DNA from: an uncultured Gemmatimonadales bacterium
GTDB lineage: Bacteria > Gemmatimonadota > Gemmatimonadetes > Gemmatimonadales > GWC2-71-9
Assembly: GCA_963739455.1 (NCBI GenBank)
Contig: CAVUAK010000001.1
Location: 320,001 to 384,000, forward strand
Reading direction: 5' to 3'
Length of the DNA stretch: 64,000 nt
Shown: one piece after another, positions 27,734 to 49,351 of the stretch
Layout: each line of letters begins with the position of its first letter
Position numbering within the stretch: position 1 is the stretch's first letter
Notes under the pieces: model-generated
Databases searched by the model: none
Told to the model about the DNA's origin: nothing
What the model saw: the letters and a program-made list of their open reading frames with translations, nothing else
Position numbers and translations under genes: made by a program

Positions 27734-28351
27734 ATGAACCGCTCGACCCTGATTGTCGTCACCATCGCCGCGTTTGCTGCCGCCTGCGGCGGTGAGCGCG
27801 CCCCGGACGCTGCGGCATCGACTGTCGTGGCGGCCGCGGCACCCCAGCATGTCGATAGCGTGGTGCCGCGCGAGGTGGCCCTGGCGCAGTTCCGCGAGGG
27901 AACGAAGCAGGTCGACCGCTTCTCGGGCGGCGCCCCATCGCGTGACGCCCTCGTGCAAGCCTGGGTGAAGGCGGTCGAGGCCAATGACACCGTGGGCCTG
28001 GCGCGACTGCGCATCTCACGCGATGAGTTCGCGTGGCTCTACTATCCCACCGCGAAACAGGGGCTGCCGCCGTACGACCTGAGCCCGTCGCTGATGTGGT
28101 TTGTGGTGGATGGAGGGAGCAACAAGGGAGAGGCCAGGCTGCTGCAGGACCGCGGCGGAAAGCCGCTGCACGTCGTCGGCTACACCTGCGATCCGCAGTC
28201 GTCAGTCGAGGGGGAGAACACCAGCTGGGGGCCCTGCGTCCTCAAGCGCGTGCCGGCAAGGGGCGACACCCTCGAGGAGCGGCTGTTCGGGCTGATCGTG
28301 GAGCGCGGCGGGGAATGGAAGTTCCTGAGCTATAAGGGGAGGTACGACTAG
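27734..28351 (+). CDS. Hypothetical lipoprotein
   Basis: GAGG SD, lipobox AAAC. Confidence 0.75.
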   Translation: MNRSTLIVVTIAAFAAACGGERAPDAAASTVVAAAAPQHVDSVVPREVALAQFREGTKQVDRFSGGAPSRDALVQAWVKAVEANDTVGLARLRISRDEFAWLYYPTAKQGLPPYDLSPSLMWFVVDGGSNKGEARLLQDRGGKPLHVVGYTCDPQSSVEGENTSWGPCVLKRVPARGDTLEERLFGLIVERGGEWKFLSYKGRYD

Positions 28352-28413
28352 GGCGGGGAGGGCGGGGAGGGCGGGAGGGCGGGGAGGGCGGGGAGGGCGG
28401 GGAGGGCGGGGAG
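28352..28413. repeat. 9-mer array (GGCGGGGAG)x7, left arm of four-helix cassette 1
   Basis: Read directly; one unit is 8 nt. Confidence 0.95.
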
Positions 28414-28429
28414 GGCGCGAAAGTAGGGC

Positions 28430-28810
28430 TCATTTCGGATGACGCCGTGCGGTACCAGCGTTTCTCATGCTTCGCGCCAACAATACAACGAGCCCCATCG
28501 CATTCGATTGCAATTCAGTCAGTTCCTGCCACTTGTCGCGTGGCAGGAACCCAAGATCAAGCGCCAACCGCAAGTGATTGTCGAGTTCTCCGAGGGAGCC
28601 CAGCGAAATATCGAGATAGCGCTTGAACTCGCGCGGACCGAGGCGCGCCGCTCCTTCGGCGATGTTCGCACCAGCAGAACCAGCCGCGCGCCGCGCCTGA
28701 CCGATAAGGCCAAACCTCTCGGTGGTCGGCCAGGAGTTCGTCACTTCATAGACAGCCAATGTGAGTTGATGCACTCGCTGCCACGCGAGTAACCGCTCGT
28801 GTCGGGCCAT
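28430..28810 (-). CDS. Four-helix-bundle protein (TIGR02436 / 23S rRNA IVP family, Avd-like)
   Basis: LLAWQ...VY...WP..ERFGL..QARRAA.S..ANIAEG..R....EF.RYL.I..GSL.EL. Confidence 0.92.
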   Translation of the reverse strand: MARHERLLAWQRVHQLTLAVYEVTNSWPTTERFGLIGQARRAAGSAGANIAEGAARLGPREFKRYLDISLGSLGELDNHLRLALDLGFLPRDKWQELTELQSNAMGLVVLLARSMRNAGTARRHPK

Positions 28811-28883
28811 GCGGAAATGTTCTACCTGAAAAGCCAGCAACTGGCACCCAAACAACGCCAGGCGGGCCGGAACCCCGCTGTAC

Positions 28884-28928
28884 TTCCCCGCCCTCCCCGC
28901 CTTCCCCGCCTTCCCCGCCTTCCCCGCC
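28884..28928. repeat. 9-mer array (YTCCCCGCC)x5, right arm of four-helix cassette 1
   Basis: Reverse complement of the left-arm unit. Confidence 0.95.
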
Positions 28929-45707: not shown

Positions 45708-46724
45708 ATGTCGTCGTCCATTCCCGTCGCCCGCTCGCGCCGCACCTTTCCCGGCATAGCCGCCGTCACCTGGGAGCACCCCGCCGACCGCGCGGCGCTC
45801 CAGGCCCTGCGCAGCGTGCCCGGCGCCGAGGAAGTCATCAAGAAGATCCTTGCCATGATCGGTGGCGAGCGCGGCATTCGCCTCCTGTTCCAGGGCAATG
45901 CCGTACGCGTCGGACCCGAGCAGTATCCGCGGATCTGGACCCTCCACACCGAGGTCTGCACCACCTTCGACTGGGACGTCGTGCCCGAGCTGTACGTCTC
46001 CCAGACGCCATTCGTGAACGCCGGTGCCTACGGCATCGACGAGCCGTTCATCGTCCTCAACTCGTCGGCCATCGAGCTCCTCACCGACGACGAGGTGCGC
46101 GTCCTCATCTCGCACGAGATGGGGCACGTCATGAGCGGCCATTCGCTCTACCGCACCATCGCGGCGATCCTGGCTCTCATCAGCCTCGGTGCACTCCCTG
46201 CCCTGGCAGGACTCGCCCTGCTGCCGGTCCGGCTCGCGTTCCTCGAGTGGTCCCGGAAGGCGGAGCTCTCCAGCGATCGCGCCGGCCTCGTTGGCAGCCA
46301 GGACATTCTCTCCACGCAGCGGCTCTTCATGAAGCTTGCGGGCGGCGGGCGGGGCGACCAGTTCGTGGGCCAGCTCAACGTCGATGCGTTCATTGCCCAG
46401 GCCAACGAGTACGCGACGTCCAACGAGGGCCTCGACATCGTCTACAAGGTGCTGGCTACGCTCGGCCTCACGCATCCGATGAGCACGGTGCGCGCCGGCG
46501 AGTTGCAGGCGTGGGTCGCCTCGGGAGACTACGAGCGCATCGTGCGCGGCGAGTACGTGCATCGCGGCGCTGAGGCGCGCGAGCGTCCGCTCAGGGACGA
46601 CTTCGCCGCGGCGGGCCGGCACTACGCCGCCGGCGCGCGCGACGTCGCGTCACAGGTGGCCGACGCCGCCAAGGGCGTGGCCGATCGGGTGGGAGAAGCG
46701 TTCCGGCAGGCCCAGAAGTCGTGA
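45708..46724 (+). CDS. M48 family metallopeptidase
   Basis: HEMGH, AELSSDRAG, THP. Confidence 0.9.
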   Translation: MSSSIPVARSRRTFPGIAAVTWEHPADRAALQALRSVPGAEEVIKKILAMIGGERGIRLLFQGNAVRVGPEQYPRIWTLHTEVCTTFDWDVVPELYVSQTPFVNAGAYGIDEPFIVLNSSAIELLTDDEVRVLISHEMGHVMSGHSLYRTIAAILALISLGALPALAGLALLPVRLAFLEWSRKAELSSDRAGLVGSQDILSTQRLFMKLAGGGRGDQFVGQLNVDAFIAQANEYATSNEGLDIVYKVLATLGLTHPMSTVRAGELQAWVASGDYERIVRGEYVHRGAEARERPLRDDFAAAGRHYAAGARDVASQVADAAKGVADRVGEAFRQAQKS

Positions 46725-47995
46725 GGCTGCTAGTCGTAGGCGGTGGCGGGCGCGAACACGCACTATGCTGGGCCCTCCACCGCGAAAACCCGGACGTGAT
46801 CATCTGCTGCGCGCCCGGAAATCCTGGCACCGCTGAATTCGCCACCAACCTCGCCATTGCCGCCGACGACATCGATCGCATCGCCGATGCGACCGACATG
46901 TACGGCATTGACCTCGTCATCATCGGGCCCGAAGTGCCGCTGGCGCTCGGTCTGGCCGACCGGCTGCGTGCCGAGGGACGGCTCGTCACCGGGCCCGGCG
47001 CCGCGGCGGCGCGCATCGAGGCCTCGAAGGCGTTCTCCAAGGACGTGATGGCGGCCGCGGGCATTCCCACCGCGGCGAGCGAGACCTTCACTGATCTTCA
47101 GGCAGCACTCGCGTACGTCGCGAAGCACGCCGAACCACTGGTGGTGAAGGCCTCCGGCCTCGCGGCGGGCAAGGGTGCGATCGTCTGCGCCACGCGCGCG
47201 GAAGCGAAGGCGGCGGTGCAGTCGATGCTCGGCGATCGCCAGTTCGGTGACGCCGGCAGCGTCGTCGTCATCGAGGCCTTTCTCGAGGGTGAGGAAGTCT
47301 CGCTGCTCGGCTTGACCGACGGCCGGACCGTCGAGCTCCTTCCTGCAGCGCAGGATCACAAGCGCCTGCTCGAGGGAGACCAGGGGCCCAACACCGGCGG
47401 CATGGGCGCCTACGCACCAGTCTCCATCGCGACGCCCGCGCTGCTCGAGCGCGCGCGCAGGGAAGTCTTTGCGCCCTGCCTCGCGGAGCTCGCGCGACGC
47501 GGCGCGCCATTCACCGGTGTGCTCTACGCCGGCCTGATGGTGGCGCCCGACGGCACGCCCAACGTGGTCGAGTTCAACTGCCGCCTCGGTGATCCGGAGA
47601 CGGAAGTGGTGCTGCCCCTGGTGACGAATGGCCTTCTCGCCGCGTTCGAGGCCATCGCTCGCAGCGAGACACCGCCGCCGCTCGAGATCGCGCGCGACCG
47701 CTTTGCGGTGACCACGGTGCTGGCATCCGAGGGATATCCCGACAAGCCGATGAAGGGGCAGCCGATCGACTTCCCCGAGAGCTTCCCTCCCGGTGTCCTC
47801 GCGTTCCATGCCGGCACCACCCGAGACGTCCAGGGCGTGCTGCGCGTCAGCGGCGGTCGCGTGTTCGCCGTGACAGGCGTGGGCGCCACCTTCGAGGAGG
47901 CGCAGGCACGCAGCCGCAGCGGTGCCGAGGCGATTCACTACCAGGGCAAGGTCTATCGCAGCGACATCGGCTGGAGAGAGGTCGAGAGGCGTTAA
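46721..47995 (+). CDS. purD: Phosphoribosylamine-glycine ligase
   Basis: GGGGREHA, KASGLAAGKG, QDHKR, GPNTGGMG, RLGDPE. Confidence 0.97.
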   Translation: MRLLVVGGGGREHALCWALHRENPDVIICCAPGNPGTAEFATNLAIAADDIDRIADATDMYGIDLVIIGPEVPLALGLADRLRAEGRLVTGPGAAAARIEASKAFSKDVMAAAGIPTAASETFTDLQAALAYVAKHAEPLVVKASGLAAGKGAIVCATRAEAKAAVQSMLGDRQFGDAGSVVVIEAFLEGEEVSLLGLTDGRTVELLPAAQDHKRLLEGDQGPNTGGMGAYAPVSIATPALLERARREVFAPCLAELARRGAPFTGVLYAGLMVAPDGTPNVVEFNCRLGDPETEVVLPLVTNGLLAAFEAIARSETPPPLEIARDRFAVTTVLASEGYPDKPMKGQPIDFPESFPPGVLAFHAGTTRDVQGVLRVSGGRVFAVTGVGATFEEAQARSRSGAEAIHYQGKVYRSDIGWREVERR

Positions 47996-48034
47996 GCGTT
48001 AAGCGTTAGGCGTTAGGCGTTAGGCGTTAGGCGT
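47988..48034. repeat. 7-mer array (RGCGTTA)x6, left arm of four-helix cassette 2
   Basis: Contains the purD TAA and the four-helix gene stop. Confidence 0.93.
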
Positions 48035-48385
48035 GGAAAGGAGGCTTCGCCGCAACCCGCCAAGCAAGCGGCCGGTTTCCTCGTTCCGATTCTCCAGCTC
48101 GGCGTGTGTCGCGTCGCTCAGGTATCCGAGTGCATGAGCAATGTCGAAGAGGCACGCAAGTTCGCCGAGAGACCCTGCCGCTATGCTGAGGTATCGTGCA
48201 AACTCGTTTCGACCGTGTCGTGCGGCCCCTTCGGCAATGTTTGCGCAGACTGAGACGGCCGCCCTTCGCGCCTGAGCTGTCAGGCCGAAGCGTTCATGTG
48301 AGGGCCACGGGCCTGAAACGCGATATACTTCAAGGGTCAGTGCACGGGCGTGTTGCCAGGAGACGAAACGTGAGTGGCGAGCCAT
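48020..48385 (-). CDS. Four-helix-bundle protein (TIGR02436 / 23S rRNA IVP family, Avd-like)
   Basis: WQ...VY....WP..ERFGLTAQARRAAVSVCANIAEG; AAGGA SD. Confidence 0.93.
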   Translation of the reverse strand: MARHSRFVSWQHARALTLEVYRVSGPWPSHERFGLTAQARRAAVSVCANIAEGAARHGRNEFARYLSIAAGSLGELACLFDIAHALGYLSDATHAELENRNEETGRLLGGLRRSLLSTPNA

Positions 48386-48462
48386 GCTTGATCCTTACAT
48401 CAAATAGCAGGTCTTCATGCACCCTTTCTTCGCGACCTGGGGCATACTGCCGCGCTAGCATG

Positions 48463-48493
48463 TCACAACCAACGCCTCACGACTAACGCCTAA
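48463..48493. repeat. Degenerate 7-mer array (TAACGCC/TCACGAC), right arm of cassette 2
   Basis: tcacaac caacgcc tcacgac taacgcc taa, then the mutM GTG. Confidence 0.75.
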
Positions 48494-49351
48494 GTGCCCG
48501 AACTGCCCGAGGTCGAGACCATCGTCCGCGACCTTCGTCCCCACCTGGTCGGTCGCACCATCCAGAGCGCGAAGCTGTCTCACGACGACGTTCTCCGCGG
48601 CGTCACGAAGCGGAAGCTCGTCGCGTCGCTCGCCGGGGCCCGAATTGTCGGCATGACACGCCGCGCCAAGCACGCGATCCTCGAGCTCGGCTTTCCACTT
48701 CACGTCCTTACGTCTTCACGTCCTCACGTCTTGTCATCCAACCCGGCATGACCGGCTCCCTCATGATCTCACGACAAGCCACTCACCCCAGCGGAGGCCG
48801 AAATACTGCCGTCCTCCGCGCCCCGCTCGACGACGGCCGGGAGCTGGTCTACCGCGACGTGCGCCGTCTGGGCACAATTCTGTTGCTCGACGAAAAGGGC
48901 TGGGCCGCTTACGACGCGGCCCTGGGCCCCGAACCCCTCGACCCCGAACTCACGCCCGCTCGCTTCGCCGCCATCATGGCGTCGTCGAAACAGGCGATCA
49001 AGAAGGTGCTGATGGACCAGCGGAAGATCGTCGGCGTCGGCAACATCTACGCGAACGAGGCGCTCTTCGCGGCGGGTATCGACCCGTCCAAGGCCGCGTC
49101 GCGACTCACGACCTCACGACTCACGACTCCTGCTCGACCCACACCCGCGCATCCTGGAGGCCGCGATCGCTCCCAGGGCACCACCTTCCGCGACTACCGC
49201 ACCGGCACCGGCGAGAAGGGCAACTTCCAGCTCGAGCTCTTCGTCTACGGTCGCGAGGGAGAGAAGTGCAAGGTGTGCGGCACACGGCTGGCCCACACGC
49301 ACGAGATCGACGCGCGCATGCACCGTCTTCTGCCACAAATGCCAGCAGTAG
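48494..49351 (+). CDS. mutM: Formamidopyrimidine-DNA glycosylase (several frameshifts)
   Basis: MPELPEVET, RRAK, GMTG, GVGNIYANE, zinc finger CKVC...TVFCHKCQ stop 49351. Confidence 0.9.
48699..48732. repeat. 8-mer array (YTYACGTC)x4 inside mutM
   Basis: ttcacgtc cttacgtc ttcacgtc ctcacgtc tt. Confidence 0.88.
49102..49128. repeat. 7-mer array (CGACTCA)x~4 inside mutM
   Basis: cgactca cgacctca cgactca cgact. Confidence 0.8.

Follow-up and report, generated by a model that had tools for sequence, protein, structure and literature searches.

In an uncultured Gemmatimonadales bacterium, a gene for a small four-helix-bundle protein is enclosed, between purD and mutM, by two inverted arrays of the 7-base word AGGCGTT, and the question raised by this cassette is what, if anything, the protein has to do with the word. 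The locus lies in the window considered here, the whole stretch of 64 kb that was analyzed (C1:320001–384000 of the source genome, G000, which is 84% complete). An earlier note, written from the window alone, had compared this cassette with a paralogous one (cassette 1) and had speculated that the repeats are synthesized in trans by a reverse transcriptase (RT). Support for an effect in trans indeed came from a comparison of 41 genomes of the order: paralog and unit go together even at remote sites, and arrays are replaced in place at orthologous sites. We infer, with about equal weight for and against, that the protein, which has the fold of Avd, drives the seeding or conversion of its unit's arrays genome-wide.

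The coupling was evident from the distribution of the focal unit. Only G000 and its relative G008 carry the focal paralog; the unit was matched 46 times at 14 sites in G000 and 35 times at 11 sites in G008, compared with a single match in the other 39 genomes. When nine of the G008 sites were followed into G000, five bore another unit there, one the same unit and two no array, and one could not be mapped. Replacement of arrays in situ follows from the five sites that differ in unit. At L297, L304 and L305, both arms differ between the two genomes, and those of L297 surround a similar terminator-like stem.

Other paralogs are also coupled to units, with exceptions. At one remote site (G000 C1:352.75 kb), the array reads AGGGGTG in G000, AACGGTG in G006 and AGCGGTG in G003, and these are the arm units of the cassettes that occupy one shared junction in the respective genomes. 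Likewise, four 9-mer arrays of G000, at three sites, map to the AGGCGGGT family in G006, whose gene is sister to cassette 1. The G006 unit was matched 152 times in G006, six times in G008 and never in the other 39 genomes. Among sampled dispersed arrays, 65 of 76 in G006, 22 of 28 in G008 and 16 of 24 in G003 were at most one mismatch away from a resident unit; for the 436 arrays of period 7–9 counted in G000 (gene positions being taken from our own rough gene calls), the figure was 283, cassette arms included, compared with a null mean of 26. A second family of words was examined in the same manner. AGGGGCT and AGGGTGT were matched in a ratio of 73:4 in G026, whose cassette has the unit AGGGGCT, and of 6:29 and 0:12 in G032 and G034, whose cassettes have AGGGTGT; in the gene-free G028, the ratio was 3:2. 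Gene-free genomes contained nine arrays in 302 kb, seven of them G/C-only noise, compared with 148 in 1,784 kb, the gene-free sample being small and arrays being unevenly dense along the chromosome.

That the architecture is conserved while the unit is exchangeable and specific to the paralog had been proposed in the earlier note, and a wider sample bore this out. TIGR02436, the family model of the cassette protein, is present in 33 of the 41 genomes. The 118 matches were reduced to 90 loci by leaving out 2 that were not retrieved, 1 without a hit and 23 that were incomplete, broken or close to the end of a contig, and by joining 2 split pairs. At 84 of these 90 loci, the cognate arms, taken in inverted orientation, scored above the 95th percentile of non-cognate pairs, compared with five in direct orientation. 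In a cross-phylum sample (80 loci, reduced to 71 by omitting L157 as a near copy and eight loci with short flanks), the same percentile was exceeded by 52 inverted and nine direct arm pairs, the clearest exception to the paired-arm architecture being Daviesbacteria (one of eight). The 5′ arm was purine-rich in 146 of 163 arms, and the cassette gene was antisense at 28 of 30 co-directional junctions, with 17 more of the 49 mapped loci at convergent ones. The five paralogs of G000 each have a unit of their own, and in all five the arm is G-rich upstream and C-rich downstream of the gene; across genomes, arms were common to only 4 of 132 pairs of paralogs that reside at different sites of one genome. 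A further side observation concerns a paralog with AGTCGTC-type arms (G000 C1 ∼2,353.1–2,353.4 kb), which is frameshifted in the assembly; even so, no unit is more frequent in the genome than its own (90 of 436 arrays).

With the unit mapped onto the paralog tree, as the earlier note had suggested, one part of its proposal stood and another did not. Period 7 versus 8 agrees with the protein tree irrespective of site and host (9 changes in 74 rows, compared with a null mean of 22 and reached by 0 of 1,000 shuffles, although kin share labels), and the focal gene, with its 7-mer, belongs to a clade of 33 rows in which 8-mers such as AGGCGGTT and AGGCGGGT prevail. The claim that the arm unit is unrelated to that of cassette 1 had to be given up: both contain an AGGCG core, and AGGCGTT is one base away from AGGCGGTT. 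The likeness of the permuted unit TTAGGCG to telomeric repeats is probably incidental, since dozens of units exist and TTAGGCG is just one of these variants. One paralog clade (L040, L043, L069, L070, L073, L081 and L085, in G031 and G035) has high-scoring inverted arms with no clear tandem unit, at several sites in one genome. By eye, the DNA upstream of the L041 cassette (G038:C92) resembles the 3′ end of a 23S rRNA gene.

Could the gene simply be cargo? Arrays might spread and homogenize by slippage, template switching and ectopic conversion, the protein being unconnected to the repeats. This would account for arrays that lack a matching gene and for units that are close relatives of each other, but not for a rare unit that tracks its paralog (two of two carriers, compared with one stray match in 39 non-carriers, and mostly at different sites), for the scarcity of shared arms within a genome, for a period that follows the protein tree or for the paucity of arrays in gene-free genomes; we consider such a passive origin improbable. 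Several observations nevertheless weigh against our own view that the protein acts on the arrays, some of them to the benefit of the cargo alternative. In G000, GGGAACA was matched 63 times and no such paralog was found, at 84% completeness; AGGGTGT was matched 12 times each in G038 (98% complete) and G040 (87%), for which no matching gene was found, and AGTCGKC is present in G004 (77%) and G007 (60%), again with no paralog found. In G009 (64% complete), 11 of 28 arrays match its one known paralog. The prediction that AGGGTGT would be absent from G026 and G028 strictly failed, with four and two matches, respectively. Gene-less arrays could be due to incomplete assemblies or to arrays outliving a lost gene. 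Furthermore, that five paralogs have five different units is not significant in G000 alone (P ∼0.29), which suits the cargo alternative as well; units are one or two edits apart, and drift together with conversion could mimic rewriting; and related genomes are non-independent samples. The G008 cassette at the C3:177 kb junction (L126) has an odd unit of 13–15 bases, and the strand bias of arrays (see below) is less clean in parts of G006. Finally, neither a catalytic motif nor a partner enzyme was identified.

The anatomy of the focal cassette (Table 1) fits the general picture. The names purD and mutM were read from the translations and taken from the earlier note. As the earlier note had stated, the 7-mer array supplies the purD TAA as well as the final codons (TPNA) and the stop of the cassette gene, the latter on the minus strand. 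The repeat scan gave a period of 7, 6.9 copies and 95% matches for this arm, which in G008 has two extra copies, both perfect. Since a purine-rich run of 7- or 8-mers can supply the stop of the host gene, insertion at a gene end would be cheap. The right arm, which had been described as reverse-complement units ending at the mutM GTG, was confirmed as such. It reads CAACGCC TCACGAC TAACGCC TAA and, once reverse-complemented, agrees with the left array at 21 of 23 bases; as this score was attained by none of 10,000 dinucleotide-shuffled versions of the 108-base spacer and by 3 of 20,000 random genomic 108-mers, a chance match was rejected. The cassette ends in TAAG on both sides in G000, the left end is TAGG in G008, and the ends vary among relatives. 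A target-site duplication, as for an insertion sequence or a miniature inverted-repeat transposable element, was thus rejected, TAAG not being conserved in G008.

Table 1. Features of the purD–mutM junction and of the cassette used for comparison, in window coordinates.
Feature	Position	Strand	Remarks
purD, host gene	46721..47995	+	TAA stop (47993–47995) from left arm; orthologues in relatives
Left arm, (AGGCGTT)6.9 with two AAGCGTT variants, G-rich on plus strand	47987..48034	+	also last codons and stop of the cassette gene (minus strand)
Four-helix-bundle gene, 121 aa, TIGR02436/PF05635	48020..48385	-	antisense to purD and mutM
84-base spacer, presumed site of the cassette gene's promoter	48386..48469	.	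sequence reading
Right arm, degenerate (TAACGCC)n, C-rich on plus strand, inverted copy of left arm	48470..48493	+	ends at the base before the mutM GTG
mutM start (GTG)	48494..48751	+	frame broken near internal array in this assembly
Gene-less 8-mer array, (TCACGTCY)n, inside mutM	48698..48732	+	repeat scan, congener comparison
Cassette 1, for comparison	28350..28928	-	paralog 28430–28810 between 9-mer arms 28350–28417 and 28883–28928

The median distance between arm and gene start was ∼75 nt (82 loci). A consensus scan of the locus retrieved neither promoter nor terminator; read by eye, TAGCAT at 48456–48461 on the plus strand, which is TAGCGT in G008, may be the −10 box of mutM. In the cassette-free loci L002, L005, L008, L010, L012 and L014, a TAnnnT box is seen by eye six bases before the mutM ATG, a leaderless type of start; in G000 and G008, the arm abuts the mutM GTG in place of this box and ATG. 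The array inside mutM varies among congeners: G008 has a focal-type 7-mer at this position and G006 has ACCCGCCT, in both cases the unit of the adjacent cassette, and no array was found there in G016 or G018. In the window, mutM (48494–49330) is frameshifted near this array and further on, and it contains a second array, CGACTCA, at 49102–49129. These frameshifts may be read errors because the inserts of G006, G008 and G009 stay in frame.

In the predicted fold, the arms form ∼20 pairs on the plus and 24 on the minus strand, i.e. they are stem-capable terminal inverted repeats, which is reminiscent of the intervening sequences (IVSs) of 23S rRNA. According to the available part of one report, the S23p IVS of Coxiella burnetii, which encodes a protein of the same family, contains its open reading frame (ORF) within terminal inverted repeats, with GACAGAT heptamers in variable number upstream of the ORF, and is a substrate for cleavage by RNase III in vitro (PMC4990558). 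By the same token, RNase III would cut the arm stem and free the cassette from the purD–mutM transcript. With three profiles, RNase III was detected in only 1 of 41 genomes (G038, on a contig of ∼1.5 kb that may be foreign), controls being positive in 8–9 of 14; the G038 protein as query retrieved nothing from G000 (best E 1.4). The enzyme has apparently been lost order-wide, and the default explanation, excision by RNase III, is thereby removed for the whole order. Furthermore, the gene is antisense to its co-directional neighbors almost throughout, and the coupling of dispersed arrays would be left unexplained; excision from mRNA is thus highly unlikely.

The cassette protein clearly belongs to its family, scoring 107.5 bits with TIGR02436 (cut-off 24) and 112.7 with PF05635 (cut-off 33.8). 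The count of about 53 matches to cassette 1 in the first 89 residues, made by hand in the earlier note, proved to be exactly 53. The only sequence match among solved structures was Xcc0516 (2GSC, E 5e-21); the predicted model, which is all-helical (pLDDT 96.8), superposed on 2GSC with a TM score of 0.92 (rmsd 0.9) and on Avd (4DWL) with 0.79. By analogy with 2GSC, which has five chains, and with Avd, the protein would be a pentamer. As far as the accessible portion of the study goes, all five protomers of the Avd pentamer take part in binding an RNA stem-loop (10.1101/2023.10.23.563531). At 89 of 90 loci, the cassette protein is basic, and Q38, N49, E52 and E75 are conserved in 88–89 of 90. 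Between G000 and G008, the focal gene differs at 19 synonymous and 7 non-synonymous codons; to judge from such differences, the protein is under purifying selection. Residues that separate 7-mer from 8-mer paralogs were considered as specificity candidates and were not used, being confounded by descent.

The shared fold, the effect in trans and the fixed polarity of the arms would also suit a telomerase-like synthesis by a dedicated RT, the four-helix protein serving as an Avd-like helper. This part of the earlier speculation was not supported: PF00078 was detected in none of the 12 genomes that represent the genus and in only 5 of all 41, and 28 of the 33 gene-bearing genomes are without it. 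Moreover, the protein misses the cut-offs of the Avd families (NF033474, 24.5 compared with 80 bits; PF22296, 23.2 compared with 40 bits), and an Rfam search at the locus gave no match and hence no template RNA family. A dedicated RT is, in our estimation, highly unlikely. Neither IVS-type excision nor RT templating fits, considering how rare RNase III and RT are in the order. The remaining partners that the earlier note had suggested were not found in G000 either. This applies to PF13366 (GxxExxY) and PF01797 (Y1/RAYT) and to a stand-alone GIY-YIG endonuclease, since the two GIY-YIG matches are both in long frames, one of them being the gene after mutM.

Where the dispersed arrays lie bears on another alternative, a domesticated regulator. 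The protein would be a sequence-specific RNA-binding ring, and the arrays, which it does not make, would be binding sites at mRNA 3′ ends and terminators that arose by mutation and slippage and were then selected, with one regulon per paralog. Arrays do cluster at stops: the 74 gene-less inverted pairs (hairpins) of G000 are mostly at stop codons, and arrays over or after a stop are more often purine-rich (141) than pyrimidine-rich (58). Gene-less hairpins lie between convergent genes in 22 of 72 cases with mapped neighbors, compared with 183 of 1,893 in the background, and some arrays wrap terminator-like hairpins. Also in line with a regulator, the copy number peaks at four (194 of 436 arrays), which is close to a pentamer, and the coupling of unit and paralog fits as well. 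In contrast, some arrays sit inside coding loops, and the same site would switch its regulon between close relatives. Selection of an RNA strand via G–U pairs was rejected, as gene-less hairpins showed no G–U strand bias (sense 22, antisense 28, p 0.48). Above all, array orientation follows the locally G-rich strand whichever way the gene runs. For solitary arrays, the purine-rich strand coincided with the G-rich one, as judged by skew at four-fold sites, in 248 cases compared with 40; by whole-sequence skew, the same preference was obtained for genes of either direction (55:12 and 82:15). This independence of gene direction points to a process at the level of DNA, and a regulator appears rather unlikely. 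As a separate observation, mixed heptamer tracts occur at the same place in several paralogous genes (G000 C1 ∼103.6, 168.7, 172.9 and 175.7 kb).

In most bacteria, the G-rich strand is the leading strand; the skew is unusual here, and the strand was left unassigned. Along G000 C1, four-fold GC skew is saw-toothed, with sharp plus-to-minus flips at ∼77, 779, 1,486 and 2,459 kb, each fading to zero over 300–500 kb; arrays are denser where the skew is larger (rho 0.58, 88 bins). The dnaA gene (882 kb) is off the flips, more DnaA-like hits are found at ∼2,235 kb, and a syntenic stretch of G006 has the same gradient. Such a pattern could reflect several replication domains; a search for an element shared by the flips retrieved none.

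Cassettes are gained, lost, decayed and inverted at fixed junctions. The earlier note had asked for relatives with an empty purD–mutM junction, and these are common: among 29 loci, 23 were without a cassette (purD and mutM overlap or are 3–4 bp apart in 12, and gene-less arms remain in 3), 4 were uninformative, and G008 had the same cassette and unit. G006 carried a different paralog (55% identity) with AGGCGGGT arms, an 8-mer unit, in the same place and orientation. In a quick tree, this gene grouped with cassette 1 (SH-aLRT 98), as it would after two independent insertions at the junction; a single clade for the three purD-site genes was not rejected by the approximately unbiased test (p 0.35). 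The site of cassette 1 showed a series of decay, from full in G000 via internally deleted in G003 and a tiny hairpin in G009 to empty in G006 and G008, and at the C3:177–178 kb junction (L114, L116, L118, L120 and L126), the cassette has one orientation in G000 and G008 and the opposite one in four congeners. Between G000 and G008, 16 of 67 four-fold sites differ in the focal gene, unlike in other same-site cassette pairs of these two genomes (33 of 47 and 35 of 41) and unlike in host genes (736 of 1,921), which suggests that cassettes are exchanged laterally. In L008, L010, L012, L013 and L017, other genes, unrelated to the cassette, fill the junction, which is thus a frequent insertion point.

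As to how the protein might act, we picture the following. The Avd-fold protein of this gene-in-a-hairpin cassette would recognize its own 7-base word, binding its repeats as RNA or single-stranded DNA; the protein would thereby cause arrays of this word to be newly laid down, or others to be converted, at gene ends throughout the genome, probably with the help of replication or repair enzymes of the host. The cassette itself may move by recombination through flanks and arms, because no transposase travels with it. A bolder version is that Avd-fold proteins are specificity subunits of an RT-free repeat-writing system, in which each paralog would hold its own arm as template and make a host polymerase add the 7–9-base word close to the ends of genes, where DNA ends or stalled forks occur. 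Heptamer arrays in many phyla would stem from it, and both rRNA IVSs and the Avd of diversity-generating retroelements (DGRs) would be derived; we regard this version as unlikely.

The function of PF05635, a widespread family, is not known despite solved structures, and intergenic arrays of 7–8 bases are unexplained in many bacteria; the coupling ties both together. Matched pairs of protein and word can now be named (the focal protein with AGGCGTT, and those of G006 with AGGCGGGT and of G026 with AGGGGCT), and each version of the gene probably dictates its own repeat word throughout the genome; a class of bacterial repeats that has long lacked an explanation would thereby be accounted for. Should the protein help to write the arrays, repeats would be synthesized from a template in a new way; should it do no more than bind them, the family would consist of rings with swappable sequence specificity. 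In the published literature, most subscription papers being outside the coverage, neither a description of paralog–unit coupling nor a paper on RNase III loss in this phylum was found.

Heptamer arrays have been described elsewhere: according to the accessible parts of the reports, these are GGGAATC in Xanthomonas and GGGGA(C/T)T in Nostoc (PMC4692102) and TAACTGA in Beggiatoaceae (PMC4679880). As in the genomes considered here, the former lie with the G-rich strand after stops and the C-rich strand before starts, form inverted pairs and prefer four units (PMC4692102, as far as available). One GGGAATC array, 6 nt after bccP, even overlaps the annotated start of XCC0516, the gene of 2GSC (row 15 of Supplement S2, within the accessible material of PMC4692102). 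The available parts of both reports propose G-quadruplex or translational roles and make no link of the repeats to the PF05635 family; in contrast to those arrays, units of the focal host such as AGTCGTC are without G-runs.

Among genes tied to repeats, RAYTs offer the closest parallel. RAYT genes are known to have REPs of their own class at their flanks. In the parts available, RAYT–REPIN systems are characterized by a single-copy gene tied to dispersed, non-autonomous inverted pairs of short repeats, and several combinations of gene and repeat can coexist in a genome (PMC3337134, 10.1101/2022.05.22.493013). Here as well, inverted pairs of the repeat that belongs to the gene are dispersed without a gene between them, given the hairpins of G000 and the unit coupling. 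The differences are that no HUH tyrosine transposase (PF01797) was found in G000 and that the focal protein is all-helical; the units are tandem words of 7–9 bases rather than palindromic REPs, and arrays are seemingly replaced in place rather than being copied as entire elements. With Avd of DGRs, which in the accessible text is proposed to position template:primer (10.1101/2023.10.23.563531, PMC10053308), the protein shares fold and basic charge, but it falls below the Avd family cut-offs, and no RT gene was found in its genus. The ORF-bearing 23S rRNA IVS, as far as described in the available part of PMC4990558, has in common with the cassette the TIGR02436/PF05635 family, an ORF inside terminal inverted repeats and tandem heptamers. 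Unlike an IVS, the focal cassette lies antisense between two protein-coding genes and not in a 23S rRNA gene, both its arms are tandem arrays, its unit is dispersed at many gene ends, and RNase III is all but missing from the order. Thus, while defining features of RAYT–REPIN systems, IVSs and DGRs are each lacking, the cassette works most like a RAYT–REPIN system and is built like an ORF-bearing IVS.

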